Shown piece by piece: positions 11,739 to 55,748 of a stretch of DNA of 64,000 nucleotides (positions within the stretch are counted from its first letter, which is position 1; each line of letters starts with the position of its first letter). The notes under the pieces were generated by a model that saw nothing but the letters and a program-made list of their open reading frames with translations, did no database searches and was not told the DNA's origin. The translations under genes were made by a program, and so were the position numbers. The stretch comes from Planctomycetota bacterium (GTDB taxonomy: Bacteria; Planctomycetota; B15-G4), in NCBI GenBank assembly GCA_038212275.1, contig JBBQUR010000019.1, forward strand, positions 34,627 through 98,626, read 5' to 3'.

Positions 11739-11831
11739 GCCGCTGAACGCCGAGCCGCTGAAGCGTCGGCTGCGCAGGGCGCGGCACGACCGCCGCTGCG
11801 GGTCACGCTGACATCCGCAAGGAGTCTCGCC

Positions 11832-12770
11832 ATGGAAGGCATCCATCGCTTCGACGATCGCGTCGAGGACTACGAGCGCTACCGGCCGGGATATCCGGAC
11901 GCTGTGGCGGGCGTGCTGGCTGCCCGCGGCGTGGGAAATCCTGCCGACGTGGCCGACATCGGCGCGGGGACCGGCAAGCTGGCCGAGGTCTTCGTGCGCG
12001 CCGGCCACCGCGTCACGCTCATCGAACCCAACGACGCCATGCGCGCCGTCGCCGAGCGGCACTTCGCCGCGCCTCGGGGCGAAGTGCCCGGCAACGCGCA
12101 CGATGAGTTGCACGATGAGTTGCACGATGAGTTGCGCAGTGAGTTGCGCGGTGAGTTGCGCGGTGAGTTGCGCGGTGAGTTGCGCAGTGAGGCGCGCGGC
12201 GAAGTGCGCCGTGAGGTGCGCGGCGAGGTGCGCGGCGGTGATCGCGCCGTATCGCGCACGGTGAAGCGCGCCGTGGTGCGGGCCGGCACGGCCGAGGCCA
12301 CCGGCCTGCCGGACCGCAGCGTGGACGCGATCACCGCAGGACAGGCCTTCCACTGGTTCGATCGGCCGGCGAGCCGCCGCGAGTGGCTCCGCATCCTGCG
12401 CCCTGGCGGCGCGGTGCTGCTCATCTGGAACGAGCGGCGCACGGAGGGCAGCGGCGTGCTGGTGGACTACGAAGAGCTGCTCTGCAAGCACTGCCCCGAG
12501 TACGCGGAGGTGCAGCGCAACGGGCCGGGCGAGTCCGGCGTGCGCGCCTTCCTCGGCCCGTCCGCCGCGCTGACAGGCTTTCCCAACGAGCAGGTGCTCG
12601 ACTGGCAGAGCCTGCTCGGCCGCGCGATGTCCGCGTCGTACGTGCCGAAGAGGGGGCCGGCGCACGACGACTTCGTCGCGGGACTGAGGCGGTCCTTCGA
12701 ACGCCATGCGGTCGCGGACCGCGTGCACCTGCTCTACGACACGCGCGTCTTCCACGGCACGCTCGACTGA
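11832..12770 (+). CDS. Class I SAM-dependent methyltransferase with internal repeat insertion
   Basis: YERYRPGYP, DIGAGTGK, AGQAFHWFD, LRPGG; AAGGAG RBS. Confidence 0.9.
   Translation: MEGIHRFDDRVEDYERYRPGYPDAVAGVLAARGVGNPADVADIGAGTGKLAEVFVRAGHRVTLIEPNDAMRAVAERHFAAPRGEVPGNAHDELHDELHDELRSELRGELRGELRGELRSEARGEVRREVRGEVRGGDRAVSRTVKRAVVRAGTAEATGLPDRSVDAITAGQAFHWFDRPASRREWLRILRPGGAVLLIWNERRTEGSGVLVDYEELLCKHCPEYAEVQRNGPGESGVRAFLGPSAALTGFPNEQVLDWQSLLGRAMSASYVPKRGPAHDDFVAGLRRSFERHAVADRVHLLYDTRVFHGTLD
12075..12242. repeat. 12-bp in-frame tandem array (~14 units; HDEL/RGEL/RGEV)
   Basis: cacgatgagttg x3, cgc(a/g)gtgagttg x4, then degenerate cgcggcgaggtg-like units. Confidence 0.95.
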
Positions 12771-12776
12771 GCGCCC

Positions 12777-29013: not shown

Positions 29014-30675
29014 ATGCGCTGGCAGTTGATTCCAAAAATGTTGTGGTTCGGGACGCTTCTGACTGCCACGGCAACTCCGCAGCAGCCGCTCCTGCAACTT
29101 CAAGGCCAGCCGTACTTCGGGGGCAGCATGACACTGCATGTCACGGCTCCCGGGGCAGTCGGGCAACCCGTGCTCCTGGGTTTCGGCCTCAATCCGCTGC
29201 CGCTCAGTGGACCCATCAACACGGGCAAGGGGCCGTTCTACATCGGGAACCTGACGTCGGTCATCGTGCTTGGCGCGATTCCGGCCAACGGGCGCTTCGA
29301 CTTTCCGTTCACGATGCCTGCGCCGATCGCCGGTGCTGAGGGAATCGCGATCAGCCTTCAGGCGTATGTCGCGTCACGGCTCAGCAACCCTGCGACAATC
29401 GTGCTGGATCAGCCTTATTACGTTCCGGCAGATGCACAGATTCTCGTGTCACCGAACCCGACGACGGCAGGACTTTTCGGCGACCGGCTTGAAACGGGCG
29501 ATCTCAATGGCGACGGCGCCATGGATATTGTCGTCGGTGCGTGGTTCGAAGATGCAGGGGGGCTTGACCATTCGGGTCGCGCACACGTTTTTTGGGGGCC
29601 GAACCTGCTTGCCACGACGACGCTCGACCCTCCTTCGCCAATCCCATTCGGCCTGTTTGGTCAGGGTCTTTCGGTCGCCGATTTCAATGGGGACGGCATC
29701 GATGATCTGGTTGTCAGTGAGGGGAATGGAGATCCGCCGCCCGCAGGCGCTGCAGGTCACTTTTACGTGTATCGCGGAGGTGCTGTGTTCTCCAGCGCTC
29801 CGACGCTCGTGAAGGCAAGCGTCGGCACGGGAGATCCGTATCAGGAGTTCGGTCATCGTTCCGTTGTTCAGGATCTCACCAATGACGGAGTACCTGATAT
29901 CGCGGTTGGACTTCCGATCTCGATCGTACAAGGGATCCAGAAGGCGGGTCGGGTCGAGATTTACCAGGGTCCGGACTTCACCGGAGGCCCTGTCGTGGTT
30001 GCTCCGGATCTCGGCACGAATGGCTTCTTCGGCGATCATCTTGCTACGGGAGATGTGAACGGCGATTCTATCATGGACCTCATCGTGGGAGCGCCGCGCA
30101 AGCCAGTCGGCAGCCTCGCCTCGATGGGACGTGTCTACCTGTTCGCAGGACCTGATTTCGTGCCGCTCAAGACCATCGAGCACCCCGATCCGTCAGGCAT
30201 CAACTCGCGCTTTGGAAACGATGTCGTCGCTCGCGATCTGAACGGGGACAGTATCGACGACGTGATCGCAACCGATCAGAGAAACCACGCCTATGTGTTC
30301 TGGTCTCCGACGTTCGAGGCGTATACGCGAATCACCCGGCCACCTGATCCGGTGACAGGTACTGCGATCAGTACCTCATTCGGCTACTTCGCAGCATGTG
30401 GCGATGTGAATGGCGATGGCCTTGCAGACATCGTTGTGGCTGATCCGTATGCCTCAGGAAAGGGGCGCGCCTACGCAGCATTGGCGCCCTACTATTCTTC
30501 GTTGCTGTTGCTGTTCGATCAGGCGCCCGAGAGCGGCGCCGAGTTCGGCTGGGGCGTGCGGCTTCGCGACCTCAATGGCGATGGTCGTCTCGAACTGCTT
30601 GTCGGGAGCGATCTGGCCGACCCAGGAGGCGTGTCCGGGGCAGGACATGTGACAATTTTTTCAAGCAACAAATAA
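29014..30675 (+). CDS. Secreted FG-GAP/integrin-alpha repeat beta-propeller protein
   Basis: AAGGAG RBS, signal peptide, repeats of FG...GD(L/V)NGDG..D..VGA...G. Confidence 0.9.
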   Translation: MRWQLIPKMLWFGTLLTATATPQQPLLQLQGQPYFGGSMTLHVTAPGAVGQPVLLGFGLNPLPLSGPINTGKGPFYIGNLTSVIVLGAIPANGRFDFPFTMPAPIAGAEGIAISLQAYVASRLSNPATIVLDQPYYVPADAQILVSPNPTTAGLFGDRLETGDLNGDGAMDIVVGAWFEDAGGLDHSGRAHVFWGPNLLATTTLDPPSPIPFGLFGQGLSVADFNGDGIDDLVVSEGNGDPPPAGAAGHFYVYRGGAVFSSAPTLVKASVGTGDPYQEFGHRSVVQDLTNDGVPDIAVGLPISIVQGIQKAGRVEIYQGPDFTGGPVVVAPDLGTNGFFGDHLATGDVNGDSIMDLIVGAPRKPVGSLASMGRVYLFAGPDFVPLKTIEHPDPSGINSRFGNDVVARDLNGDSIDDVIATDQRNHAYVFWSPTFEAYTRITRPPDPVTGTAISTSFGYFAACGDVNGDGLADIVVADPYASGKGRAYAALAPYYSSLLLLFDQAPESGAEFGWGVRLRDLNGDGRLELLVGSDLADPGGVSGAGHVTIFSSNK

Positions 30676-30776
30676 TATACATTATTCCAGAAGGGGGCTA
30701 GCTAGTGAATAGCTCATAAAAGGTCGGGCTGAGAAGTATTGTAGTCTTCATTGCATTCTTATCACCAGCAAGCGCG

Positions 30777-32360
30777 ATGCAGACGACAGTATGGGTTGAT
30801 AGCGTGTTGGGTGACGATGGTAACTCCGGATCGTCGCTGCTGCCATACAGCACAATCAGCAAGGCTGCTGAAGTGGCGAAGGCAATGGGTGGCGACTACC
30901 TTATAAAGGTCATCGAAGGTGACTACACGCAGGCACATGAAATCGGCGGTGGCGCCACAACGCCCGGCTATCCCATTGTCATCGACAAGTCGGACATTCG
31001 CATCGAAGGTACAAGCACGGACTCAGCTCACTACCCCCGCTTGGGTGGCGATGTTGCTGATTCAGGAGTTGACGCAATCATTCGGATCGATGTGCCATCG
31101 GGAAGCAACCTCGTGGGGATTTCACTGAATCGACTGCATTTTGTCGGCGAAGACACTGCCGGTGAGGATGCCCCGAGTGCAATTCATGTCTACTCCGATG
31201 AGCAACGCACCCTCGCAAGTTCAGGGGCAAGCAACTGCACTATCGAGAGATCGGAGATGAACGCCTCCTTCGAGGATGGACGTCCCTCAGTGTTGTTGGA
31301 GACGGCCGGTGGAGGCAGCTTGATGCAATTCACTTTGTCGAATTGCGAGATTTGGTGCTCCAACCGGGGAGGCGCCGAGGTTCGGATCGCCACGCCGACA
31401 GGAGATCCTGGCCAGGATAATCCTCTACTCATCGTTGATGAGTGTCAGGTGTTGATCGCCGGCAACGATGATGCGATGTTCGGCTTGGGATTCACTACCG
31501 AGGAAGACAGTAACTGTACAGGTGACGCTGGCCTGAAGGCGCACTTGGTCATCATTCATTCAACTGGCGCAAGCGAAGGCCATGGGATCGAAACGGGCCT
31601 CGGCTACTGGCTGGCAGCTTCCGATGGCACGCTGGTTCACCCCTTGGCAAATCGGATATCGCGCTGCGAGATCAAGGGGTGTCTCTCGGATGCCGTCTTG
31701 GTCCATTCTCGGGAAGAGGGATCTGGAACCGTGAATATCGTGTTGCCGGAGGACGACTTTTCGTTCAACAAACTACACCACAACGGTGGCGCAGGCATCC
31801 ATCTGGATTGGGGTGAGAGCGGAGGCTACGTCAACGTGAAAACAGAGAACAACTTGATCTACAGGAATGAGTGGGGGATCTGGTATCAGGGCGTGAACGA
31901 GGACATCGACGGTCAGCTATGCGGGCATCAGTTCGAGACGATCTGCATGAACCAGAGCTACGCGTTCCGAATGGACGGCAGCGGCACTCCTTCCACCGAA
32001 ATTCCTGGGCCGTTCCTGAACAGCGTGATCGTGTGGCAGAACAATGCTGGCGGCAGCTACATCCAGAATGGTGGCACGCTGACGTGGGATCCCCAAGTGG
32101 AGGGACAGATGAAGCGGTCCTGCTGGCAGAACCTCAGTTCGCCCGTGAACCGGAATACGAACGCCAATCCGAACCTCGCCAACACCGCCAGCGACGACTA
32201 CCACCTGACCTCGTCCTCGACAACGTGCATCGACCTCGGCGACAACTACCCGGCCGGTGGACTTCCGCCATTTGACCTGGATAGGGAAGATCGGACGGTG
32301 AACGGCAACGCCGCAGACGGTGACGAGGTCGACAAGGGGTGTGACGAGTACGACCCATAA
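30777..32360 (+). CDS. Beta-helix surface protein (DUF1565-like N-terminus, choice-of-anchor-Q-like C-terminus); signal peptide interrupted upstream
   Basis: WVDSVLGDDGNSGS..PYSTISKA; C-terminal DYHL...CIDLG...DLD...VDKGCDEY. Confidence 0.7.
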   Translation: MQTTVWVDSVLGDDGNSGSSLLPYSTISKAAEVAKAMGGDYLIKVIEGDYTQAHEIGGGATTPGYPIVIDKSDIRIEGTSTDSAHYPRLGGDVADSGVDAIIRIDVPSGSNLVGISLNRLHFVGEDTAGEDAPSAIHVYSDEQRTLASSGASNCTIERSEMNASFEDGRPSVLLETAGGGSLMQFTLSNCEIWCSNRGGAEVRIATPTGDPGQDNPLLIVDECQVLIAGNDDAMFGLGFTTEEDSNCTGDAGLKAHLVIIHSTGASEGHGIETGLGYWLAASDGTLVHPLANRISRCEIKGCLSDAVLVHSREEGSGTVNIVLPEDDFSFNKLHHNGGAGIHLDWGESGGYVNVKTENNLIYRNEWGIWYQGVNEDIDGQLCGHQFETICMNQSYAFRMDGSGTPSTEIPGPFLNSVIVWQNNAGGSYIQNGGTLTWDPQVEGQMKRSCWQNLSSPVNRNTNANPNLANTASDDYHLTSSSTTCIDLGDNYPAGGLPPFDLDREDRTVNGNAADGDEVDKGCDEYDP

Positions 32361-33576: not shown

Positions 33577-34896
<1,320 letters not shown>

Positions 34897-44730: not shown

Positions 44731-45210
44731 TCATTGGTTGAAGGGCGGGCAGGCTTCGGATGATGTGCCCGTGGCGTTGCCGCGGATCTGGCCCGTCTTC
44801 GGGCAGTACATCCAGGCCTTCTCGCCGGACGGCAGCGCCGGCATGCGGTCCACGATCAGCAGGCTGCTGCTGTTCGTGTAGGGGTTCGTCGGCAGCGCGC
44901 CGTCGCTCAGGTACGGCCCGAAGGAAAAGTCGTCCGTCGCTCCGACCTTGCCCTCCTTGTTGGTCCGCCGCAGGAGCTGGTTGGCGGCCGTCATCGCGTC
45001 GGGGCCCGGGAAGCTGCCGTGCTCGGACGCATAGGAGTCGATGGCGGTGCGCAGCACGGCGAGCCGGGCGAGCATCAGCTGGGCACGCCCATCCTCCCTG
45101 TTGCACGTGAATTGCGGGATGGCCACGGCGGCGAGGAGGCCGACGATGGCCACGACGATCGTGACTTCGAGCGCGGTGAAACCCCGCGACCTGCGACTGC
45201 GCGCCTGCAT
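44731..45210 (-). CDS. Type IV prepilin, major-pilin/GspG-like (copy G1)
   Basis: RG|FTALEVTIVVAIVGLLAAVAIPQF; FGPYL, PTNP, GQIRGN. Confidence 0.88.
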   Translation of the reverse strand: MQARSRRSRGFTALEVTIVVAIVGLLAAVAIPQFTCNREDGRAQLMLARLAVLRTAIDSYASEHGSFPGPDAMTAANQLLRRTNKEGKVGATDDFSFGPYLSDGALPTNPYTNSSSLLIVDRMPALPSGEKAWMYCPKTGQIRGNATGTSSEACPPFNQ

Positions 45211-45305
45211 CGATCCGACTCCGCCAGCCCAGGCAACACCGGCGTGATGAACCGTCGCGGAAAGCTGTGCGATCGGCCGCGCCCGGTGTCGGGGCTGTAG
45301 CGCGC

Positions 45306-45335
45306 GTATCGACCGGCTCCGCGACCCGGCTTGAG
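45306..45335 (-). promoter_or_regulatory. sigma28-like promoter motif
   Basis: CTCAAG-N16-GTCGATAC. Confidence 0.6.
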
Positions 45336-45367
45336 GTCGCATGGCGGATCGAGTCAAGCGGGAAGCT

Positions 45368-45838
45368 CTACAGCGAGAAGAAGTCCGCGCCGCTGGGCGC
45401 CACGCCGACATTGTTGGCGCGGATCTCGCCGCTGTTGTTGCAGTAGATCCACGCCGTGGCGCCGGTCGCGGCGGAAGGCATCGTGGCCACGTTCGTGCCG
45501 GTGGTGGTGTTCGTCATCGGGTTGGCGGGGAAGGTCGTGCGCAGGTACGGCCCGTACTTGGTCCCCGCGGCGCCGGTCGCATCGGTGCCCGTCGTGAGCT
45601 GAGTCACCAGTTCCGACCAGTTGGCCTGGCCCGGATAGGTTTCGTTGTGCTGGACGCGGTAGAGGCTGATCGCCTGGCGGACCGTGTTGAGGTTGGCGAC
45701 GAGCGAGGATTCCTTAGCATCCGAGGAAACCGCATTGAACTGCGGGATCACGACGGCGGCGAGGATGCCGAGGATGATCACGACGATCAGCAGTTCGACG
45801 AGCGTGAATCCGCGCTGGTCGCGGCGATGGCAAGCCAT
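45368..45838 (-). CDS. Type IV prepilin, major-pilin/GspG-like (copy G2)
   Basis: RG|FTLVELLIVVIILGILAAVVIPQF; KYGPYLR, FPANP, GEIRAN; GGAG RBS. Confidence 0.92.
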   Translation of the reverse strand: MACHRRDQRGFTLVELLIVVIILGILAAVVIPQFNAVSSDAKESSLVANLNTVRQAISLYRVQHNETYPGQANWSELVTQLTTGTDATGAAGTKYGPYLRTTFPANPMTNTTTGTNVATMPSAATGATAWIYCNNSGEIRANNVGVAPSGADFFSL

Positions 45839-45899
45839 GTTCGGATTCTCCAGAAGGCCCTCGCCTGGACGGGCGGGTGGTCGGGCCTTGCAATCACGC

Positions 45900-45929
45900 A
45901 CATCGGCGCCTTGCACGGCACGACTTGAG
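45900..45929 (-). promoter_or_regulatory. sigma28-like promoter motif
   Basis: CTCAAG-N16-GCCGATGT. Confidence 0.65.
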
Positions 45930-45942
45930 ACAGTTGCCTGAT

Positions 45943-47085
45943 TCACGGTGCCACCTCGCCCGGGACGACGCCCAGCCACGGGTCATCCGAGACGCCCTGA
46001 CTGAGGACGACCGCCGAGCGCTGCTGAAGCGGCCGGTTGTTCGGGAAGATCGTGATCGAGACGCGGTTGATGACCGGCGTGATGGTCGTGGTGGATGCCG
46101 ACCACGGACCCTTCACGTCGAGCGGGATCGTGGACATCTGCGCAACCCACGACGCCGAGCCGCCGACGCCCTTCTTGAGGATCTGGTCCGCGGGGAAGGA
46201 CGCCTGCACCATCTGCTTGAGCACCACGGTGTTGGTGTTGCCCAGCGGCGTGATCAGGAGCGTGTATCCGACGCCGGGGGTGAGCGCCGCCGAGAGAGAC
46301 ACCGGCACCAGGCTCGAGGGAACGTTCCACACGCTGCCCGTCTGGGTCGCCGCGGGCATCGATGAGCTGTTGACGGTCGCGGTGGCGAGCGCGGTGCCGG
46401 TGGGCCGTCCGCGGCCCGGGGCCCAGCCCTCGTAGACCGTGAGCGTCACCTTCTTCTCGCCACTGCCCTCGAAGAAGGCCATCGGCACGTCGAAGATCGA
46501 GGACTGCACGGAGATGACCTGCTCGGAGGACGTGGCCTGGCCGGGAACCTGGGTCGGGAGAGCGGGCGCCACGAACGCGATGGCAAGCGACTCGCCCGAA
46601 TCGACGGTCAACGCGGACGGCGTGCCTGTCGCGGCCAGCGTGCTGTACCAGACCCCGTCATGACTCGCAGGCGAACCTTCGCGATAGCGGTCGATGTAGG
46701 TCGGCTCCATCTGGATCGACTTGAAGGACGTGTACATCACGCCCGTGTCGCCGTTCGGCCGCTTGACCATCAGGTTGGCGCCCGAGGTGTAGTACTCGGT
46801 GAACGCGCCTTCCGTGTCGGCGAGCTTGATGTGGGTGTTGCTCACCTGCTCCACCCACCACGCCTGGCGGATGTCATTGGTGATGCGGCGCAGCGCCGGA
46901 TCGGCGTCCGTGCCGGAGATGCCGGCAATCTCTTCCATGTGGTCGAGGTTGCGCGTGTAGCCGTAGGTCGTGAAGGCCAGCGAACTCAGCAACATCGCCC
47001 CGAGGACGGAGGCGATCAGCAGCTCCGGCACGGTGAAACCCGCATGGCGGGCGGAGAGAGGAAAGCGCGGCTTGAAGGCTGTCAT
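45943..47085 (-). CDS. Large minor prepilin, PilW/GspJ-like (copy W1)
   Basis: AG|FTVPELLI; IRQAWW, RPNG, RYREG, C-terminal DPWLGVVPGE. Confidence 0.8.
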   Translation of the reverse strand: MTAFKPRFPLSARHAGFTVPELLIASVLGAMLLSSLAFTTYGYTRNLDHMEEIAGISGTDADPALRRITNDIRQAWWVEQVSNTHIKLADTEGAFTEYYTSGANLMVKRPNGDTGVMYTSFKSIQMEPTYIDRYREGSPASHDGVWYSTLAATGTPSALTVDSGESLAIAFVAPALPTQVPGQATSSEQVISVQSSIFDVPMAFFEGSGEKKVTLTVYEGWAPGRGRPTGTALATATVNSSSMPAATQTGSVWNVPSSLVPVSLSAALTPGVGYTLLITPLGNTNTVVLKQMVQASFPADQILKKGVGGSASWVAQMSTIPLDVKGPWSASTTTITPVINRVSITIFPNNRPLQQRSAVVLSQGVSDDPWLGVVPGEVAP

Positions 47086-47113
47086 CGTTGTCGACCCTGA
47101 GGTGTGGCAGCGC

Positions 47114-47142
47114 TTGTCGACACCGCGCAGGGGCGACTTGAG
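47114..47142 (-). promoter_or_regulatory. sigma28-like promoter motif
   Basis: CTCAAG-N15-GTCGACAA. Confidence 0.6.
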
Positions 47143-47151
47143 TGCCCTGAC

Positions 47152-47625
47152 TCAGCCCTGAGCGATCTTGCCCGTGGCGGGGTCCAGCGTGAGCGTGCGC
47201 ACGACTCCCTTGCAGGTGAAGATGACCGTGCCGCCTGCGATCGGGAGGCCCTGGCCGTCGAAGATCGCGGCGGCGCCGTTGGCGCCGAAGCTCGCGCGCG
47301 TGAAGTCGATGCCCTTGGGCTGGTCGGGACGATCGAAGGACACGATGTAGCTGCCGCGCGTGAGCGGGTCGGTGACGGCGGTGCCGTCCTTGTCCACGAC
47401 GGCGAATCGGTTCGTGGCGACGTCGAAGACCACGCCGTGAGTCTCGCGCGAACTGCGTGAGAGGCTGCTCGCGCGGGCAAAGGCATCGCGCACCTGCAGC
47501 TCGACGTTGTCGAGACGGTCGCTGTAGCCGCTGCCGGCGGCCGGCAGCGCCACGAGCGCCATGACGCCCATGATCGAAACGACGACCAGCAGTTCGATGA
47601 GCGTGAATCCCCGGCGGCTGTTCAT
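47152..47625 (-). CDS. Minor prepilin, FimT/GspH-like
   Basis: RG|FTLIELLVVVSIMG; IFDGQGLP, C-terminal LDPATGKI. Confidence 0.85.
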   Translation of the reverse strand: MNSRRGFTLIELLVVVSIMGVMALVALPAAGSGYSDRLDNVELQVRDAFARASSLSRSSRETHGVVFDVATNRFAVVDKDGTAVTDPLTRGSYIVSFDRPDQPKGIDFTRASFGANGAAAIFDGQGLPIAGGTVIFTCKGVVRTLTLDPATGKIAQG

Positions 47626-47640
47626 GGTCTCTCGCGCTCC

Positions 47641-48612
47641 TCAGCGTGTGGCCGGGAAGGCGAAGTCCGCGATGGCCTGCTTCTCGGCGCGCGAGGCCGA
47701 GGAGGACGGGAAGGCCACGCGGCGAACGCCTTCGGCGCCCGTGTCCAGCGAGTCGGGCCAGGTGCGCGGCCCGCGACCCGAACCCGGCTGGTCGATGGAG
47801 GTGCCGAGAGCCAGCGGCTCGGTCACGACCACCTGCGCGTGCAGGGCACCGCGACCGGGCAGCGTGAGATTGCGCGCGATGACCACGCCCTTGATCTGCA
47901 CGCGGTCGTTGCCCGTGCCCGTGATGGCTGCGTCCGGCGCCACGATGGAGCAGCCCGGAAGCGTGCCACCCGATTCGATGAGCAGGCCGCCGTCGATGAT
48001 GATCGACGTGCGCTGACCATTCGTCCACGGGATGTCCGTGCAGGCCGGCTCGCTCACGATGGCGCCCGTCAGGATCACGTTGCGCAGCGTGAGCGTGGCC
48101 CCGTCGTGCAGGTAGATGATGCCGGTCAGCTCGGTGTCGGCGATGGTCCTCGTTCCGGTCACCTCGGTCGTGCCGGAAGCCGTCGTGACGGCGCGCCGCG
48201 CGGGGTTGGTCAGGCTGGGAAGTCCGCCGGACAGCGTGCGATAGGTCTCGACCACGCCGGAGATTTCCTGCGTGACGCCCTGGCCGCTTGCGGTCACCGT
48301 CACGGAGTGCAGGTCGGTGCCGCTGTCCACCATCGCGATGGAAATGTCGTCGCTGCCGAGGGAGAGCGTCGTGCTGCTCGCGCCGGACGAGAGCAGCGAC
48401 TGCTTGGCCCAGGCGAAGCCGGAATCGGCCGCGTGTTCCGCGGCCTGCGCGCGCAGCGTGGCGTGCGTGTTGTCGGCGGCAGTGAGCACATGCCGCGCCT
48501 GGCCCATGGTGAGGCTGACGATGAGCACCGCCAGCAGCAGCACGGAGAGCAGAACGAAGCCCCGCTGTCCGGCGCGTTCCGGCGTGCTCCTGAGTGTTGC
48601 GGAGTGTGTCAC
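47641..48612 (-). CDS. Minor prepilin, PilX/GspK-like (no Glu+5) with probable beta-solenoid (copy X1)
   Basis: RG|FVLLSVLLL; AEHAADSG; GTG start overlaps the upstream TGA. Confidence 0.75.
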   Translation of the reverse strand: MTHSATLRSTPERAGQRGFVLLSVLLLAVLIVSLTMGQARHVLTAADNTHATLRAQAAEHAADSGFAWAKQSLLSSGASSTTLSLGSDDISIAMVDSGTDLHSVTVTASGQGVTQEISGVVETYRTLSGGLPSLTNPARRAVTTASGTTEVTGTRTIADTELTGIIYLHDGATLTLRNVILTGAIVSEPACTDIPWTNGQRTSIIIDGGLLIESGGTLPGCSIVAPDAAITGTGNDRVQIKGVVIARNLTLPGRGALHAQVVVTEPLALGTSIDQPGSGRGPRTWPDSLDTGAEGVRRVAFPSSSASRAEKQAIADFAFPATR

Positions 48613-49142
48613 GGGTTGAGCCACCAGATGTAGGTGCCGATGACCTCTTCGCCTTCCCGCACGGTGACGGTCAGGCGCAGCAGCGCGGCGTTGCTGGTCG
48701 GGTCCGAGGCCAGAATGCCGGGTGTCGTCAGGTTCACGTGCTCGACGTGCACTTCCTGGCTCCAGGCGCTGACGCTGGTCATGGCGGCCAGTCGGGCCGA
48801 GATGGGGGGCGAGAAGCTGGCCCCGTCGAGGTCATCCAGCGTGATCACCTCGGCGCCGGTCGTCGCGGGCACACCGTCGCCCACGGTGCGCGGCAGCACC
48901 TGGGCCGCGCTGTGGATTTCGCGGGCCAGACCGAAGGCCGTCGTCGGCACATCGGCCATGACCTGCGCGGCCGTCACCGATTCGGTGAGGGCCGATGTCG
49001 CAGCCACCAGCATGGTGCCCGCGATCAGCGTCGCGAGCATCACCTCGACAAACGTGAGGCCGGTCGTGGCCCGGCGAGAGGAAGACCTCTCGCCGGGCAC
49101 GAGTCCGGAGCCAGCTTCGGGTTGTGGCGTGCTCGGAATCAC
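48609..49142 (-). CDS. Minor prepilin, PilV/GspI-like (copy V1)
   Basis: TG|LTFVEVML; LAREIH, LDGASFSPPI, WSQEV, WWLNP. Confidence 0.78.
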   Translation of the reverse strand: MIPSTPQPEAGSGLVPGERSSSRRATTGLTFVEVMLATLIAGTMLVAATSALTESVTAAQVMADVPTTAFGLAREIHSAAQVLPRTVGDGVPATTGAEVITLDDLDGASFSPPISARLAAMTSVSAWSQEVHVEHVNLTTPGILASDPTSNAALLRLTVTVREGEEVIGTYIWWLNP

Positions 49143-49149
49143 GAGTCGC

Positions 49150-49626
49150 TTACAGGGTGAAGTACGCGACGCCGCTCGGGCCGACAGTCGCCGTGTTGCA
49201 TCGGAACTCGCCGTTGCCGGTGGAGTACACCCAGCCCTCGTTGCCGGTTGCGGTCGCAGGCATCGTGGCAGCCGTCTTCACGTCCGCCGCATTGGCGGGA
49301 GTATCAGCCACCGGGTTCGACGGGAAGGAGTTGCGGATGTACGGGCCGTACTTGCCGCCCGCGACCACCGTGCCGGAGACATCCGTCTCCGAGGTCAGCT
49401 CCGCGACGATCGAGGCCGACGGGAACGCGTCATTGTGCTGCACCTTGTACAGCTCGATCGCCTGACGAATGGTGGCCAGGTTGCTCGCAACCGCGGCTTC
49501 CTTGGACTCGGCCGCCGCCGTGTTGAACTGCGGGATCACGACCGCGGCAAGAATGCCGAGGATGATGACCACGATGAGCAACTCGACGAGGGTGAAGCCC
49601 TTCTCGCTACGACGGATATTCAGCAT
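49150..49626 (-). CDS. Type IV prepilin, major-pilin/GspG-like (copy G3)
   Basis: KG|FTLVELLIVVIILGILAAVVIPQF; KYGPYIR, FPSNP, GEFRCN; GGAG RBS. Confidence 0.92.
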   Translation of the reverse strand: MLNIRRSEKGFTLVELLIVVIILGILAAVVIPQFNTAAAESKEAAVASNLATIRQAIELYKVQHNDAFPSASIVAELTSETDVSGTVVAGGKYGPYIRNSFPSNPVADTPANAADVKTAATMPATATGNEGWVYSTGNGEFRCNTATVGPSGVAYFTL

Positions 49627-49695
49627 GGAACTTTGACTCCGGAAGGAACAGCAGGTCCCGCCGACGCGGCGGATACATTGGGTACTGCGCGCACT

Positions 49696-49724
49696 CTTTC
49701 GGCAACCCACCGGGGGCACTTGAG
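49696..49724 (-). promoter_or_regulatory. sigma28-like promoter motif
   Basis: CTCAAG-N15-GCCGAAAG. Confidence 0.65.
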
Positions 49725-49750
49725 GCCGCATCCGGAAAAGTCTCAAAGTC

Positions 49751-50914
49751 TCAAGGCAGGCTTGGAGACTCGTTGGGGACGACGCCCAGCCACGGGTCCT
49801 CGGCCAGCACCTGGCTCGAGGGGCAGGCGGAGGCGATGTGCTCGACGCCTTCGCTGCTCACCAGTGACATCGAGATCTGCGTCGTGACATCGGTCGCCAC
49901 TGTCGTCGTGATCGTCGCGTCGCCGTAGATGCCCATGGGAATGATCTTTGCCTGATCGGCCCAGGCGGCGGCCGCATTCTGGCGGAACGCGACGCTGCGC
50001 TGCGCGCCGGTGGGTGACACCCACGCGCCCACGATGCCGATGGAGCCCGTACCGGTGACCGAGAGCACCACGCAGTAGCCGGTCCCCGGCGGCAACAGCG
50101 CGTTGATCGCGGGAATCGCGATCGACGTGGTGGTGGCGGGCGCCGCGTAGATGGCGGTGGTCAGGTCGAGCGGGTTGGTGGCCGGAATGGCCACCGTGCC
50201 CAGCGACAGCAGGCGCAAGCCGATGTCGAAGGAGACGAGTGCCGAGGCGCCGGGCCGTGGGCGGGCATCGCCCGGCGCCCGCGACCTGTAGATCTCGACA
50301 TGGAGCTGCCCGCCAGCGGACATGCGAGCGAGCCGCAGGTCGAGACGATCCGGCACGAAGCGCAGGATGCGGTCATCCACGCCGGAGGCGGTGCGCGGGC
50401 CTGCGTTGCTGTTCACGTCGAAGGCGAGGGACAGCGAGTTGCCCGGGACGAGCAGCATCGATCCCGGAACGGAGACCGGCGTTGCCACGCTGTCCAGTCG
50501 ACCGTTGACCGTGGCGACGGGGCCCTCGCGCAGGCGGCGTGTGGCGGTGCCCTCGAAGGAGACGTCCGACAATCCGGAGATCACGGCACCTTGGCTGCCG
50601 TCGGGGCGGGTCACGAGCAAGCTGTCGCCGACGACGGAGTATTCGGTGATCGCGTTGTCGGTGTCCGCGACGAGCAGCTTGCCGGCGCTGGGCACGTCCG
50701 CCCACCACGCGTAGCGCACGTCACGGGTCAGTCGGGCAAGCGTCGCCTCGTAGGAGTCCACGGAGTCGAGATTGAGGTGTGCAACCGTGTTGCCGAAGCT
50801 GCCGGTCATCGTGGCCGTGGCGGTCACGAGGATGGCGCCGAGCGCCGTGGCCAGCATGACTTCCATGAGCGTGAAGCCGGCCTGGCGATTGCAGGTTCGT
50901 GTCGTGTGCAGCAC
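49751..50914 (-). CDS. Large minor prepilin, PilW/GspJ-like (copy W2)
   Basis: AG|FTLMEVML; VRYAWW, RPDG, RLREG, RAPGDARP, DPWLGVVPNE. Confidence 0.8.
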   Translation of the reverse strand: MLHTTRTCNRQAGFTLMEVMLATALGAILVTATATMTGSFGNTVAHLNLDSVDSYEATLARLTRDVRYAWWADVPSAGKLLVADTDNAITEYSVVGDSLLVTRPDGSQGAVISGLSDVSFEGTATRRLREGPVATVNGRLDSVATPVSVPGSMLLVPGNSLSLAFDVNSNAGPRTASGVDDRILRFVPDRLDLRLARMSAGGQLHVEIYRSRAPGDARPRPGASALVSFDIGLRLLSLGTVAIPATNPLDLTTAIYAAPATTTSIAIPAINALLPPGTGYCVVLSVTGTGSIGIVGAWVSPTGAQRSVAFRQNAAAAWADQAKIIPMGIYGDATITTTVATDVTTQISMSLVSSEGVEHIASACPSSQVLAEDPWLGVVPNESPSLP

Positions 50915-50983
50915 GGAAGTCTCGCATGCCGGATCGGGGATGAAGGTGAGCGCTGCGAGCGGAGGACGTCGCAGCGGGAGTCC

Positions 50984-51012
50984 ACATCGGCGTCGAGGGC
51001 GCAGCAGTTGAG
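50984..51012 (-). promoter_or_regulatory. sigma28-like promoter motif
   Basis: CTCAAC-N15-GCCGATGT. Confidence 0.65.
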
Positions 51013-51053
51013 GGTGAACTGGTTCGCCCGCCCCTCGGCCGCAGACGGTGGCC

Positions 51054-52016
51054 CTACTTGGCCGGGAACTGGAAGGTCTTGATGGCCGCGAGGTCACCGC
51101 TGGCGGGCGCGGCCGTCTGGAATGCCAACGACTTGAGCCCGAGCGCACTCACGCTGACCGCTGCGGGCCAGTCCAGCGGCGCACGCCCCAGTCCCGGACG
51201 GTCGATGGTGCCGGGGAGCGTGAACGGCTGCGAGGCGACGACTTGCGCATCCATGCTGCCCGAACCGGAGACGGAGATCGACTTGCCGAGCACGATGCCG
51301 TGGATCTCCACGTGGCTCGTGGCGTCCGCGATGATCGCGCCGTCGGGCAGCAGGATCGCGCAGCCGGGGAGCATCGAGGTGGGTTCGATGCGCACGCCTT
51401 CCTGCAGCGTCAGCGTGGTGGCCATCGCCGGGTTGTAGGGCGGTCCGAGCAGTGCCGCTTCCGACACGATGCTGCCGTGCAGCACGACGTCCTTCAGCGT
51501 CAGCTTGCAGCTGCGTCCGAGGCGCAGCGTGCCGGTGATCACGGTGTTCTGCAGTGTCACCGTGCCCGTGTACTTCACGGCCGTGGCGTCGGCCGTCACG
51601 GCCGCCACGGCCGCGGAGGTGACCGAGGGGACCAGCTCGCCCGTGAGGCCGAAGACGCGCGCGTCGGCCTCGATCGTCGCGCCGAGGCCGTCCGACGTGG
51701 CATTCACGCGGATGGAGCGCTTGTCGCCGCCTTCGTCGGTGACGACCACAGAGATGCTCTTGTTGCCCGAGTTCACGCTGGCGGTCCCGAGGCTCTGCCC
51801 CGAGGACAGCACCTGGCGCGCGAAGGCCACGCCCGACTGGGCCGCCTCCCGGGTCTCGTGCACCCACAGCGAGGCCGTGGACTGTCGCCAGTCCACCGTC
51901 GTGTGGCGCGCGTGGCTGGCCGTGGTGGCCACGATGAGGGCCGCCAGCAGGAGCACGGTGATGAGCACGTAGCCGCGCGATCCGCGGCGAGAGTCGGACA
52001 GGCGCGCGTCGCTCAT
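51054..52016 (-). CDS. Minor prepilin, PilX/GspK-like (no Glu+5) with probable beta-solenoid (copy X2)
   Basis: RG|YVLITVLLL; REAAQSG; collinear with X1 (GxIVSE, LPGC, IDxPG.GR.P..WP). Confidence 0.78.
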   Translation of the reverse strand: MSDARLSDSRRGSRGYVLITVLLLAALIVATTASHARHTTVDWRQSTASLWVHETREAAQSGVAFARQVLSSGQSLGTASVNSGNKSISVVVTDEGGDKRSIRVNATSDGLGATIEADARVFGLTGELVPSVTSAAVAAVTADATAVKYTGTVTLQNTVITGTLRLGRSCKLTLKDVVLHGSIVSEAALLGPPYNPAMATTLTLQEGVRIEPTSMLPGCAILLPDGAIIADATSHVEIHGIVLGKSISVSGSGSMDAQVVASQPFTLPGTIDRPGLGRAPLDWPAAVSVSALGLKSLAFQTAAPASGDLAAIKTFQFPAK

Positions 52017-52516
52017 GGATTGATCCACCACCACCACGTGCCCATGTCGATGTGTCCGTTCAGGACCCTCACGCTCAGCCGGTACAGTGCGCTGGAGGAT
52101 TTGGTTTCGCTGGTGAAGGAATCGGAGACGGGGTTTTCCAGGTCTCCCAGCGCATAGACGGAGACCGTCACCTCCTGGCTCCAATGGGCCGCCGAGGCGA
52201 TGGAGCTCTTGGCCGAGTCGATCGGCGGAGAGAACGTGGCCCCGTCCAGGCTGTCCAGCGCCACGATGCCTGCGCCGTTGGCCGCCACGCCCGCACCGCT
52301 GGCCGCCGTCGGAAGCGTGAGCGCGAGCTCGTGGATCTCCTTGGCGAGCAGCGCCGCGTTGATCGGCGACTCTTCGTGGATGTGTCTGCTGGTACTGGAT
52401 TGCGACACCGCCCAGCTGGCCGAGACGAGCACGAGCCCCACGATGAGCGTGCCCATGAGCACCTCGATGAGCGTGAGGCCGGCGTGCCTGGCCTGCGTGC
52501 GCGCCGGGCCGTTCAT
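52013..52516 (-). CDS. Minor prepilin, PilV/GspI-like (copy V2)
   Basis: AG|LTLIEVLM; LAKEIH, LDGATFSPPI, WSQEV, WWINP; ATGA overlaps at both ends. Confidence 0.8.
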   Translation of the reverse strand: MNGPARTQARHAGLTLIEVLMGTLIVGLVLVSASWAVSQSSTSRHIHEESPINAALLAKEIHELALTLPTAASGAGVAANGAGIVALDSLDGATFSPPIDSAKSSIASAAHWSQEVTVSVYALGDLENPVSDSFTSETKSSSALYRLSVRVLNGHIDMGTWWWWINP

Positions 52517-53739
52517 GACTCGGTCTCGCCGGGGACGACGCCCAGCCAGTGATCGGTCGCCATGCCCTGGCCGGTGAGCGTCACCGAGCCCGTCACCTCG
52601 GTTCCATCGCCTCCCACGAGCGTGATCGCGACGCGCTGCACGACCGTGTTCGAGAGCGTCTCGGTGACCGACATGTTGCCGCTCAGCGAGCAGGCCACGG
52701 CCAGAGCCGCTTCGTTCATGCCTGCGCCGGCCGCATCGAAGGCCACGCCCGAGTTGTTGGCCGCGCCGGTGACGGCGGTGGCGATGGCCATGCCGCCCGT
52801 TCCGCTCATGGAGATCTGCAGCGTGTAGGCGCGACCGGGCAGAAGCGCGGCGGCGAGGTTGAAGCTCCCCAGATCCACCGACACGTTGCTCGCGGGCGCC
52901 GTGGTCACCAGCGAATACGTGCCGTGCTTCTTCCACCAGCCCCAGGCGTTGCCGTTCGGAACGTTGACCTTTTTCTTCTTCTTGCTGTCCCAGACGTAGG
53001 ACGACGTGACGGGAAGCGCGACCGGGTCCAGCGTGAAGCTTCCCAGCGCTGCGCCTTCGGGGCGGGCATCGCCCGGGGCGCGCGCCCGGTACAGCGTGAG
53101 GGTGACGGTGCCACTCACCGGCGAGATCGCGGCGAGCGGCAGCGAGAAGGACGTCGGGCTCGCATTCACGAGCTGCTCCGTGATGCCGGGCACGAGCGAT
53201 GCGCCGACGGGAGACGGCGAGGCCAGCGTGAAGCCGATCGCGATCTTGTCAGTGGCCTCGAGGATCGTGGCCGTGGGCGTCGAGCCTCCGGGCAGGGCCG
53301 CGCTCCAGACCGTGCCGCCGCGCACGGCCGGCGTGCCCTCGCGATAGCGAGCCAGCGTCTCGGCGGCGAAACTGCCGCTGGTCAGCCCCTCGAGCAGGTA
53401 GCCCTGCGACCCGTTGGGCCGGACCACGATGAGCTTGTCCTTGCGGAAGGCATACGTGGTGGTATTGCCCTGCGGGTCGGAGAGCGTGAGCGATGTGCTG
53501 TTGGGCACCTCGGCCCACCACGCGTAGCGGATCTCGTCCGCGATGGAGCTGAGCGACTCCTCGAGCGAAGAATCCTGCTCCGAATCGAGCTCCTTCAGCT
53601 GCGTGCCGAACATGCCGGCCGTCGTGGCCGTGGCGATGAGCAGCAACGCGCCGAGTGTCGCGGCCAGCATGATTTCGATGAGCGTGAAGCCGCGCTCCGC
53701 AGCCCGCCTCGCCTGACGGCCCTGCGCGTCAGCAGGCAT
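52513..53739 (-). CDS. Large minor prepilin, PilW/GspJ-like (copy W3)
   Basis: RG|FTLIEIML; IRYAWW, RPNG, RYREG, RAPGDARP, DHWLGVVPGE. Confidence 0.82.
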   Translation of the reverse strand: MPADAQGRQARRAAERGFTLIEIMLAATLGALLLIATATTAGMFGTQLKELDSEQDSSLEESLSSIADEIRYAWWAEVPNSTSLTLSDPQGNTTTYAFRKDKLIVVRPNGSQGYLLEGLTSGSFAAETLARYREGTPAVRGGTVWSAALPGGSTPTATILEATDKIAIGFTLASPSPVGASLVPGITEQLVNASPTSFSLPLAAISPVSGTVTLTLYRARAPGDARPEGAALGSFTLDPVALPVTSSYVWDSKKKKKVNVPNGNAWGWWKKHGTYSLVTTAPASNVSVDLGSFNLAAALLPGRAYTLQISMSGTGGMAIATAVTGAANNSGVAFDAAGAGMNEAALAVACSLSGNMSVTETLSNTVVQRVAITLVGGDGTEVTGSVTLTGQGMATDHWLGVVPGETES

Positions 53740-53993: not shown

Positions 53994-55748
53994 GTGACGA
54001 GCGCTCGCGCCACCTTGCTCTGGTCCCTGCTCGCAGGGTTGCTGTCGTTCGGGGCGAGCCTGCACTGGGACGCCTCGCCCGACCTGTCGGGCGTCATGGC
54101 CGAAGTGGACGGCGTGCATCCCGTGCGTGCGGCGCAAGCTCTGCGCGAGGCCTACGTCCCCGGCGGTGGCTTCCTCGACAAGTATCCGCCGCTCGGCTCC
54201 TTCCTGATGGGTGTGGTCGTCGCAGCGACCGACGCCTCGTACGGCGCCGAGAGCGCGACCATCCCGGACTTGTCGGCGGAGCTGCGGCGGCCGGCGCTCT
54301 GGTCCCTGCGCGAACGAACCCAGCGCCTGCTCGGCGCGGAGCGGCTTTTGTCGCGTCTCGCGCTGGCCGGCAGCGTGGCTCTGCTGTGCGCGCTGGCGCT
54401 CCGCTTGCTTCGGCGGCCGGAACGGGCCGCGCGGACAGCAGCGGCGTCGGCCGTGCCGGCGGTTGCCGCCCTGCTCGCCGCGCTGGTCTTCGGCTGCAGC
54501 GCGCCGGCCCTGTACTACGCCGACACCACCAATGTGGACGCCCTCGCCTTGCTCGGCAGCCTCGCGAGCGTGCTGCTGTGCGTGCAGCGCCGCTGGATCT
54601 GCGCGGCCGTCGCCCTGGCGCTGGCCACGGCCGTCAAGGATCCGGCCGCAGCGCTCGCGCCGGTGATCCTCGCCGGCGCCTGGTTCGACCGAGTGGCCGG
54701 CGCGACCGGCGTGACCGGCGCGACCGGCGCAACCGGCGCAACCGGCGCAACCGGCGCAACCGGCGCGGCTGGCGCGATCGGCGTGACCGGCGTGACCGGC
54801 AGGCAGGCGTTTGCGGCGCGCGCGCGCCGACTGGCGGCGGTGATGGCCGCGGGACTGCTGACCTACGCCCTGGCGTCGGGCGCCGTCACGGGGCCCGGCG
54901 TGTGGTGGCAGCACGTGCGCTACCTCTTCGCCGGCGGCATCGGTGGAGTGGATCGCATCGACCATGCCGTGCCGGCGCAATGGATCGCGTTGACCGGCTA
55001 CATCGCCTCCCTCGTGCGCGGCGCCCTCGGCTTGGGCGCCGCACTCTTCGGCCTGCTCGGCCTGGCGCTGCTCGTGCGCGAGCGCGGACGCACGGGATGG
55101 TTGCTGCTGGCGGCGTGTCTCGCCACGCCGGTGCTCTTCGTGCTGCCGATCGGTTTCGTGTATGCGCGCTTCCTGCTGGTGCCGATGGCGCTGCTGTGCG
55201 CGGGCCTGGCCGTCCTGCTCGTGCGTCTCGCGGAAGGGCCGGCGGGGCGCCCCACGCGACTCGGGCTGCTGGGAGCAGGGGCTTGCGCACTGCTCGTCGT
55301 GGCGGGCGATCGCCAGATGTTCGACTTTCACCGCCACGTCGCGCCGGCGCTCGACGCCCGCCGCGCCTTCGCGCAGGACCTGCCGAGCCGCGCCCCGGAC
55401 GGCTCGCGCATCGTGATGTTCGCCGACGAGCGCGAGCATGGCCCGCCGCTGGATCCCGGCCGCTGGACACTGGACGTGGCGGGTCTCGACACCGCCGATG
55501 CCCGGCTGCGTGACTGGGCCGCCGCGCTGCCGGAGGAGCGTCCCGACTTCGTGCTGTGGATGAGCTTTCCGACGGATCGGCCGTCGGGCCTCCCGACCAC
55601 GCCCTGGCCGCTGCCTGAGCCCGGCACGCGTGTCGGCGGCGTCTTCGAGGTGGTCGAGGTGCTGCCGGCGCCCGCCCCGGAGAGCTGGCCGGCGCGCAGC
55701 CTCGCGGTCCGCCCGCAGATCATGCTGCTGGCCCGACTGCCTCCCTGA
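53994..55748 (+). CDS. Polytopic membrane glycosyltransferase, GT-C (ArnT/PMT-like)
   Basis: Many TM segments, acidic EVD after TM1, DKYPPL, TNVD, ATAVK, YARFLLVP; soluble C-terminal domain. Confidence 0.6.
   Translation: MTSARATLLWSLLAGLLSFGASLHWDASPDLSGVMAEVDGVHPVRAAQALREAYVPGGGFLDKYPPLGSFLMGVVVAATDASYGAESATIPDLSAELRRPALWSLRERTQRLLGAERLLSRLALAGSVALLCALALRLLRRPERAARTAAASAVPAVAALLAALVFGCSAPALYYADTTNVDALALLGSLASVLLCVQRRWICAAVALALATAVKDPAAALAPVILAGAWFDRVAGATGVTGATGATGATGATGATGAAGAIGVTGVTGRQAFAARARRLAAVMAAGLLTYALASGAVTGPGVWWQHVRYLFAGGIGGVDRIDHAVPAQWIALTGYIASLVRGALGLGAALFGLLGLALLVRERGRTGWLLLAACLATPVLFVLPIGFVYARFLLVPMALLCAGLAVLLVRLAEGPAGRPTRLGLLGAGACALLVVAGDRQMFDFHRHVAPALDARRAFAQDLPSRAPDGSRIVMFADEREHGPPLDPGRWTLDVAGLDTADARLRDWAAALPEERPDFVLWMSFPTDRPSGLPTTPWPLPEPGTRVGGVFEVVEVLPAPAPESWPARSLAVRPQIMLLARLPP
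54699..54797. repeat. 9-bp in-frame tandem array (11 units, Gly-Ala/Val-Thr)
   Basis: ggcg(cg/tg/ca)acc-type units x11. Confidence 0.95.

Follow-up and report, generated by a model that had tools for sequence, protein, structure and literature searches.

An eleven-gene prepilin array of a planctomycete as a candidate lineage-specific variant of the minor-pilin tip complex

The minor-pilin tip sets what a type IV filament primes on and what it binds. Here we describe an array of eleven prepilin genes at positions 44731-53739 of a 64,000-nucleotide stretch of DNA from a Planctomycetota bacterium (the window; positions 34,627 to 98,626 of contig JBBQUR010000019.1, assembly GCA_038212275.1), which we regard as a form of the known minor-pilin tip complex that is specific to this lineage. 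The tip of type II secretion systems (T2SS), described as GspK-GspI-GspJ with GspH, is known from enterotoxigenic Escherichia coli (ETEC; 3CI0), Vibrio (EpsI-EpsJ, 2RET) and Pseudomonas aeruginosa (XcpVWX; XcpW, 3NJE). The same five pilin classes occur in the array, where we call them G, H, V, W and X for the GspG-, GspH-, GspI-, GspJ- and GspK-like members, respectively. Both systems share a K-like member without Glu5, a predicted GspJ fold in W and a predicted ternary complex. However, the array differs from the T2SS tip in that its proteins do not belong to the T2SS families at the sequence level, W is predicted to carry a jelly-roll of about 220 residues and X a solenoid, the gene order is J-I-K-H, the machine is encoded apart from the J-like and G-like genes, and up to about seven sets occur per genome.

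In Myxococcus xanthus, paralogous four-pilin sets (clusters 1-3) work on a single machine, and either of two suffices (Treuner-Lange et al. 2020, PMC7541494). According to the available part of that report, a PilX-type member lacks Glu5, and the tip both primes assembly and mediates adhesion (PMC7541494). That one machine can work with interchangeable tip sets, as was raised for our array in a first-pass annotation of the window, is thus not new but established in M. xanthus. Compared with what that part of the report describes of the M. xanthus minor-pilin/PilY1 clusters, the bulky domains lie here within the pilins themselves; a scan of the genome for PilY1 (PF05567) gave no match, but the control was silent in 14 of 14 genomes and the scan is therefore uninformative. 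Moreover, the sets are not all complete here (there is a W with no V-X and a V-X-H with no W), and there are three major-type pilins versus one.

Pilins that carry an additional folded module of a kind not restricted to pilus biology, the modular pilins, include PilB (vWA) and PilC (lectin) of Streptococcus sanguinis, CofB of ETEC and ComZ (beta-solenoid) of Thermus thermophilus (Raynaud et al. 2021, PMC8179133). As judged from their models, W and X are modular pilins in the sense used in the accessible part of that paper, joining a pilin module to a functional module for display at the tip. X recalls ComZ in combining a pilin module with a solenoid; ComZ was absent among the 50 fold matches listed for X1. 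Two features appear different from the modular pilins described there: the W module is inserted in the beta-sheet region of the pilin instead of being grafted onto its C-terminus, and the modules of two such pilins, which match no Pfam family, are predicted to unite in one head. Relative to known tips, the novelty would lie in the joining of extra domains of the J-like and K-like pilins, in a core set divided over two loci, and in copies reaching about seven. We found no description of the W/V/X family in the literature, subscription journals being outside the coverage of our search.

The prepilin genes and their sequence relationships

The minus strand of the window carries 11 intact prepilin genes in the transcription order W3-V2-X2-W2-G3-V1-X1-H-W1-G2-G1, separated by -16 to 157 bp; all 11 open reading frames (ORFs) are present within the bounds and in the order given by the first-pass annotation. 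The first three genes form accessory cassette A, consisting of W3 (52513-53739; 408 amino acids), V2 (52013-52516; 167 amino acids), which overlaps W3 and X2 by 4 bp each, and X2 (51054-52016; 320 amino acids), and this cassette has no H of its own. W2 (49751-50914; 387 amino acids) belongs to accessory cassette B together with V1 (48609-49100; 163 amino acids), X1 (47641-48624; an ORF of 327 amino acids, 323 in the gene-caller version) and H (47152-47625; 157 amino acids), and G3 (49150-49626; 158 amino acids) lies between W2 and V1. The array ends with W1 (45943-47085; 380 amino acids), G2 (45368-45838; 156 amino acids) and G1 (44731-45210; 159 amino acids). The start codons were chosen in this study, W2 being given a GTG start. 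The G+C content at third codon positions (GC3) is 0.87-0.93 in all 11 genes and 0.89-0.95 in the flanking housekeeping genes (ETF-QO and leuS).

A class III leader was read in 11 of the 11 translations. Nine of the proteins have Gly-1, a hydrophobic residue at +1, Glu+5 and a hydrophobic helix, whereas X1 (G/FVLLS) and X2 (G/YVLIT) lack Glu+5, so that both leader and missing glutamate were as the first-pass annotation had described them. The array proteins therefore have the features that define the type IV pilin/pseudopilin superfamily, in which Glu+5 is missing from the K/PilX class. The N_methyl family of Pfam scored above its cut-off in six and at E ≤ 0.1 in eight of the 11 proteins (22.5 bits for W3, 29.6 bits for W2), and TIGR02532 was above its cut-off in seven. 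Beyond the N-methylation motif, the Pfam scan of the 11 proteins listed nothing, and no pilin-head family was listed for any of them.

The NCBIfam models gave hints of relationship, all of them below the curated cut-offs. The GspG model (TIGR01710, cut-off 88.85) scored 55.6 bits with G2 (model positions 1-97 of 134), 53 with G3 and 43.4 with G1, and the GspH model (TIGR01708, cut-off 80) scored 36.5 bits with H. V2 matched the GspI model at E 0.069 (the best GspI score being 13.6 versus a cut-off of 44.35) with a sub-threshold prepilin-domain match, and V1 matched the PilV model at E 0.037 over 135 of 139 positions. For X2 the N-terminus of GspK was found at E 1.4e-6 (best GspK score 28.1 versus 130). 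The W proteins showed sub-threshold similarity to the N-termini of PpdC, ComGF and GspJ, and the GspJ model TIGR01711 was not listed for any W in the NCBIfam scan. These matches hint that V may resemble GspI/PilV, H GspH and G1-G3 GspG, but at the sequence level W, V, X, H and G appear to stand outside the T2SS GspG/H/I/J/K equivalogs. The first-pass annotation had named membership of W, V and X in an already described minor-pilin family of the same arrangement as the outcome that would speak against its proposal; no protein scored above the cut-off of such a curated family. We also considered and rejected the Verru_Chthon cassette A-D families (TIGR02596-02600), which matched the N-terminal helix only (12.5-23.7 bits versus cut-offs of 70 and 256.5). 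In searches of the PDB sequences, the V and W profiles matched pilin N-terminal helices only and the X profile had no match; T. thermophilus TTHA1219 was the only PDB sequence found with the V profile (E 0.002, N-terminal 72 positions).

V1 and V2 are 40% identical, W2 and W3 34%, and G1 and G2 38%. The V proteins had been described as ending in WW(L/I)NP, and such tails were indeed present in 16 of 16 aligned V sequences (IWWLNP in V1 and WWWWINP in V2), although variants such as WWLAEP exist. G2 and G3 are identical over the first 27 mature residues, as was claimed, but their heads are only moderately divergent, the overall identity being 50%.

Predicted structure of the W-V-X tip

The AlphaFold model of W3 (predicted local distance difference test score, pLDDT, 83.9) consists of a pilin helix and a globular part. 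When compared with VIA-align, the best matches of the pilin module were XcpW (3nje; Z 10.4, root-mean-square deviation, rmsd, 3.5, 118 residues aligned) and TTHA1219 (5G23; Z 10.3, rmsd 2.8, 109 aligned), and EpsJ and GspJ followed at Z 8.8 each. TTHA1219 has 236 residues and no jelly-roll insert, and its likeness is confined to the fold level and the N-terminal helix. The range aligned to the GspJ class, residues 50-404, brackets an inserted jelly-roll beta-sandwich at about residues 136-359 (about 220 residues). The model thus places W3 in the GspJ/PilW structural class and agrees with the earlier reading of an extra domain built into W. Foldseek against the PDB returned for the same model low-scoring jelly-rolls only (template-modelling score ≤ 0.25) and no pilin; the pilin fold surfaced with VIA-align wide. 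For the insert itself, the highest Z values came from domains of phage baseplates and tail tips (13.3 and 12.9). The Cwp84 lectin-like domain came next at Z 11.4, and modules of the PHR and carbohydrate-binding types reached Z 6-8.

The X1 model (AlphaFold2) had a pLDDT of 68.8 overall and of about 90 for residues 146-270. Its residues 146-308 are predicted to form a beta-solenoid, which agrees with the solenoid-like region noticed in the sequence before and which matched SRRP (5nxk, Z 9.9), bactofilin (Z 9.1) and autotransporter passengers (about Z 8). The pilin module (residues 51-128), a low-confidence region of the model, matched GspK (3ci0_K) at Z 6.9 with an rmsd of 1.9 over 78 residues. 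The alpha-domain of GspK was not among the fold matches listed for X1, the large extra domain being the beta-solenoid instead. X2 would have the same Glu5-less pilin module followed by a C-terminal solenoid, going by the model of its paralogue X1. The fold resemblances of the extra domains suggest that W and X may act as adhesins or in substrate recognition.

For complex prediction the mature chains of W3, V2 and X2 were used, each with its own alignment and with X2 as the scored partner. The W3-V2-X2 complex scored 0.74, 0.74 and 0.75 in three runs, versus 0.00, 0.00 and 0.24 for the controls, with at least 88% of contacts in common between the runs and a partner pLDDT of 79; among solved complexes 116 of 157 reach the score mark applied here, and among mismatched pairs 2 of 215 do so. 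Failure of W, V and X to model as pilin-fold heterotrimers was the second outcome that the first-pass annotation had considered fatal, and in the one set that was modelled the prediction passed its controls. The W3 residues at the predicted interface coincide with the family motifs, namely 71-74 (RYAWW), 132 and 134 (RYRE), 220-224 (RAPGD), 300-304 (PGRAY) and 393-401 (DHWLGV). The WWWWINP tail of V2 (residues 161-167) is predicted to contact X2, and the conserved PG.GR.P stretch of X2 is also at the predicted interface. Among the 42 W positions with at least 90% conservation (counted over residues 45-408), 15 fall into the predicted W-X interface, compared with 27 among the remaining 322 (odds ratio 6.1, P = 8e-6). 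Two of the W interface motifs belong to the jelly-roll and meet rungs of the solenoid of X in the model, and because of these contacts the jelly-roll and the solenoid are predicted to form one composite head. These predictions support binding of W, V and X in a heterotrimeric tip of the GspK-I-J type, with X in the GspK-like position at the top.

The motifs RYAWW, RP(N/D)G, R(Y/L)RE and the terminal D(P/H)WLGVVP(G/N)E, which correspond to those noted before in the three W paralogues, are invariant or nearly so in our alignment of 23 W sequences (the alignments held 16 rows for V, and 16 and 23 rows for X). The conservation of W is lowest at about residues 238-297, outside the predicted W-X interface, where insertions specific to single paralogues occur. 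In addition, many W relatives of 480-650 amino acids match the W profile in two or three separate stretches, and the insert domain therefore seems to be a hotspot for further insertions. In one W paralogue encoded elsewhere in the genome (L054:8935-10476, minus strand, 514 amino acids; contig C3) a Cys/His-rich motif about 40 residues long (...ICHVPPGNP.NAH...AHLAHGD..G.C) is inserted twice in the jelly-roll, where Pfam gave no match. Another (L053:8218-9769, minus strand; contig C11) is split in the middle of the jelly-roll: the first of its two ORFs closes with about 90 unrelated residues, and the second begins with what appears to be an ordinary signal peptide of its own, followed by the remainder of W. 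W matches split at the same point were also seen in other genomes of the family.

Distribution and gene order in the family

The genome analysed here (designated G000, other G numbers being relatives and L numbers loci) is 91% complete in 40 contigs. We surveyed a 301-genome sample of the phylum and then all 16 genomes of the GTDB family to which the window belongs. Full-length W was confined to this family, being present in 7 of its 7 genomes in the phylum sample and in 16 of 16 family-wide. In the rest of the phylum only the N-terminal helix of W was matched, and in the sister family also the N-terminal half, in 3 of 6 genomes. In the phylum sample at most six candidates per genome were scored, and the W copy numbers there are lower bounds; a scan with the C-terminal motif alone found only five loci, the searches of the genomes with hidden Markov models being more complete. 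The number of W matches among 1.84 billion cluster representatives was 104 at a threshold of E ≤ 1e-30 and grew to 130 at 1e-10 and to 743 at 1e-3; the named records bearing W were metagenome-assembled genomes of Planctomycetota, and the relatives were labelled Planctomycetota or Phycisphaerales.

Copy numbers of W, V and X were taken from family-wide profile searches in which every candidate was scored and split matches were merged into genes. Mapping by such searches had been proposed as a check, and it confirmed paralogous sets: across the 16 family genomes the numbers of W, V and X track each other from 1 to about 7. The W:X:V counts were 6:6:6 in G000, 5:5:5 in G308, 3:3:3 in G292 and G146, 2:2:2 in G262 and G302, and 1:1:1 in G127, G301 and G307, and one genome that is 72% complete had W only. 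The counts are approximate for G304, G305, G306, G215 and G080, in which partial matches fell at contig ends. In the genome of the window we counted 6 W, 6 V, 6 X and 5 H; by phmmer over all ORFs, W-V-X-H cassettes were also found on contigs C21, C11 and C3, and in this genome all four other cassettes end with a paralogue of H.

The gene order of the array recurs in relatives. Two of them have the identical 11-gene order (L029 and L030, the latter being the same place as L043), and two others have shorter eight-gene forms, W2-G3-V1-X1-H-W1-G2-G1 (L027) and W3-V2-X2-G3-H-W1-G2-G1 (L028, the same place as L044). In G308, where only the W/V/X genes were compared, three W, two V and two X lie in the same relative order on one contig. 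Single-W genomes (G127, G301, G303 and G307) have the W1 type only, in a G3-W1-G2 or G3-W1-G2-G1 locus, with W1 of G307 at a contig start, and in G127, G301 and G307 the only V-X sits in a machinery cluster. Orthologues of G3 scored 173-223 bits in 6 of 6 related loci where they were found. The more divergent G1 was found in five loci, which stand for four relatives because L028 and L044 coincide, and also in L076, but not in G127 (L048) or G301 (L074).

In a maximum-likelihood tree of 23 W sequences, clades spanning genera were recovered for W1 (support 100/99, 7 rows), W2 (87/82) and W3 (92/89), and the W proteins of dispersed cassettes formed a fourth clade (97/96); W2 groups with the W of a contiguous W-V-X-H cassette in G146. 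Since the three positions form orthologue clades across genera, W1, W2 and W3 are old and maintained. This argues against the free combination of any W with any V/X that was suggested before: W1, W2 and W3 are position-specific orthologue groups with cognate V-X sets. The data support the pairing of W3 with V2-X2, of W2 with V1-X1-H, and of W1 with a V-X-H set encoded with the machinery, the last being deduced from the genomes in which each of W, V and X occurs once. Thus, of the earlier interpretation, the lineage-specific tip-type minor pilins, the domains built into W and X and the paralogous sets stand, and the free 3 x 2 mixing is not supported. The view that the extra copies are redundant or decaying duplicates without a distinct role is very improbable, because, although the C11 W is split in two ORFs and cassette A lacks its own H, the 11 genes of the window are intact with native GC3, and W1, W2 and W3 are kept as separate orthologue groups at 31-50% identity with the interface motifs conserved in every copy.

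Among the neighbouring genes, ETF-QO adjoins G1 or the last pilin gene in 9 fetched loci. Divergently from W3 lies a gene for a polytopic membrane protein (53994-55748, plus strand) that is possibly associated with the array; it weakly matches GT87 (E 7.8e-5, 23.0 bits, cut-off 25) and has a collagen-like Gly-Ala/Thr repeat, (G-A/V-T)n. The first pilin gene of L045, L027, L044, L030 and L076 has a homologue of this GT-C-like gene directly upstream, and in the window the gene likewise lies upstream of the pilin genes. TfpW of P. aeruginosa is a pilin glycosyltransferase of the GT-C type, and the GT-C-like neighbour could likewise glycosylate the pilins. A scan for sigma-70 promoters between 44300 and 54300 found none, and in the same interval a scan for intrinsic terminators found one terminator-like site, on the opposite strand and below the shuffle mean. 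An Rfam scan of the window detected two tRNAs only. At 29014-32360 (plus strand) the window has a GC content of 0.56 versus about 0.70, and encodes there two proteins, one with FG-GAP repeats and one whose N-terminus is of the DUF1565 (beta-helix) type.

The machine and the nature of the filament

In line with the first-pass annotation, which had found no machinery near the array, we obtained no T2SSE, T2SSF, secretin or prepilin-peptidase match on the whole of C19, the contig with the window. Genome-wide there were eight T2SSE-family matches (two of the PilT family), five GspF genes, eight secretin matches and one prepilin peptidase (on C6). The machinery is thus not missing: a machine was found on C12, in one of five clusters of ATPase and platform (E-F) genes. 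At C12:12178-14328 a paralogous V-X-H set lies directly upstream of assembly genes, in the order fused PilM/PilN-like protein, GspM/PilO-like protein, small periplasmic protein, secretin, ATPase and GspF platform, and the cluster has no W and no G. As C12 carries its own V-X-H paralogues but neither W nor G, we tie the window to this machine. Fourteen of the 15 other family genomes carry a single copy of the PilM/N-like gene, and in 8 of these 14 a W gene lies 25-29 kb away on the same contig. In two sister-family genomes the machinery operon itself continues directly after GspF with W-like (1-2 copies), X-like and H-like genes, and the sister-family GspF is closest to that of C12 by a modest margin (218 versus 191 bits). 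These operons (L071, G182:C115, about 5100-6700; L072, G022:C73, about 11500-13000) also contain a GAF/histidine-kinase-like gene between the X-like and the H-like gene.

Our preferred interpretation, to which we assign a probability of about 0.55, is that the pilin locus in the window serves a single, lineage-specific type IV filament machine, that of C12, which would build a surface pilus for adhesion or ligand capture with a head selected by cassette. A surface ligand-binding pilus is favoured because of the pilMNOPQ-BC gene order, the PilQ architecture of the secretin and the adhesin-type extra folds. By analogy with the GspK-I-J and PilVWX priming complexes, X, lacking Glu5, would cap the filament after leader cleavage, with V and W beneath it, H joining the tip to the shaft and G1-G3 polymerising as the shaft, and the jelly-roll of W and the solenoid of X, which would stand in place of the GspK alpha-domain, would pack into one composite head. 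The ancestral core locus would be G3-W1-G2(-G1), its W1 completing the machine-encoded V-X-H. Two accessory cassettes, W3-V2-X2 and W2 with V1-X1-H, would have been added around G3 here; with three further cassettes elsewhere this would give six alternative heads in the genome, and the cassette expressed would decide which head the filament carries.

Several observations weigh against this interpretation. None of the 11 proteins reached an NCBIfam equivalog cut-off, and the W, V and X profiles found no GspI, GspJ or GspK among the PDB sequences, so that the relation of W, V and X to known minor pilins is remote and rests on predicted structure. The fold-based homology was built on shallow alignments of 16-23 rows, and the pilin module of X is poorly modelled (pLDDT about 50-58). 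The predictor used the same alignments, which means that the overlap of interface and conservation is not independent evidence, and the complex may have passed partly because the predictor had learned the solved GspIJK and XcpVWX complexes. The array (C19) and the machine (C12) of this genome lie on different contigs, and synteny with G292 breaks at about C19:54,966. There are four other E-F clusters, three of which (C1, C10 and C12b) show no minor-pilin set in an N-terminal motif scan, and the number of GspF genes rises with that of cassettes (three GspF at 1-3 cassettes and five at 5-7 in six genomes), so that part of the cassettes may belong to other machines. Finally, the G heads look GspG-like, which would fit a T2SS pseudopilus equally.

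Such a periplasmic pseudopilus, with exchangeable W-V-X piston tips that recognise different sets of folded exoproteins or push them through the secretin, is less probable, but the Gsp-like appearance of the G, H and M proteins makes it a rival to be taken seriously. T2SS tips are known to contact the secretin and substrates. All of the similarities are below the cut-offs: G1-G3 match GspG past the N-terminal helix, H is best matched by GspH, X by the N-terminus of GspK, and the protein after the fusion by GspM (E 4e-8). The fused gene of C12 (470 residues) was grouped with PilM/PilN fusions in a language-model search, a lead only, and would then have the architecture of GspL. For the secretin the GspD model, and for the ATPase the GspE model, gives a slightly higher score than PilQ and PilB, respectively, GspE and PilB being about equal for the ATPase, which is of the GspE/PilB type with an MshEN domain. 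However, the gene order of C12 follows pilMNOPQ-pilBC, and its secretin covers the PilQ model end to end (1-428 of 428) but only the C-terminal half of GspD. The genome already has a separate canonical D-E-F-G-H-I-J cluster on C4, with a GspG above the cut-off, and two PilT-family ATPases, and jelly-roll and solenoid modules are typical of adhesins and of phage receptor-binding parts.

It is improbable that each W-V-X(-H) set serves a different one of the five E-F machines and that its co-location with G genes is accidental. The C1, C10 and C12b clusters without an I/J/K-like set and the joint rise of GspF and cassette numbers would fit this explanation. However, three GspF genes occur both in G127, which has one W/V/X set, and in G292 and G146, which have three; among the E-F clusters only the C12-type one carries V-X-H paralogues; and several genera share the gene order in which the two cassettes of the window are set into the core G3-W1-G2-G1 locus. 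One of the other clusters (G000:C1:31882-35990) has two adjacent ATPase genes of the GspE/PilB type and a GspF, with no pilin or secretin nearby in the scans made.

A more specific form of the pilus interpretation, a retractile 'fishing' filament whose exchangeable lectin-like W-X heads take up different polysaccharides or particles and whose pilins are glycosylated by the GT-C-like neighbour, is speculative and, if anything, a little less probable than separate machines. Planctomycetes have ligand-binding pili-like fibres, which bound dextran-gold on P. limnophila and G. obscuriglobus (Boedeker et al. 2017, PMC5394234). If the fishing filament were real, it would give a genetic handle on these fibres, for which the available part of that report (PMC5394234) names no pilin genes.

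The procedure used here indicates that a pilin array without machinery can be linked to its machine by combining paralogy with the bookkeeping of copy numbers. The array would represent a natural, compact system in which the exchange of tips and the passage of bulky tips through a secretin can be approached. Moreover, the tip complex proposed here suggests a role for about 100 clusters of hypothetical proteins from uncultured Planctomycetota.

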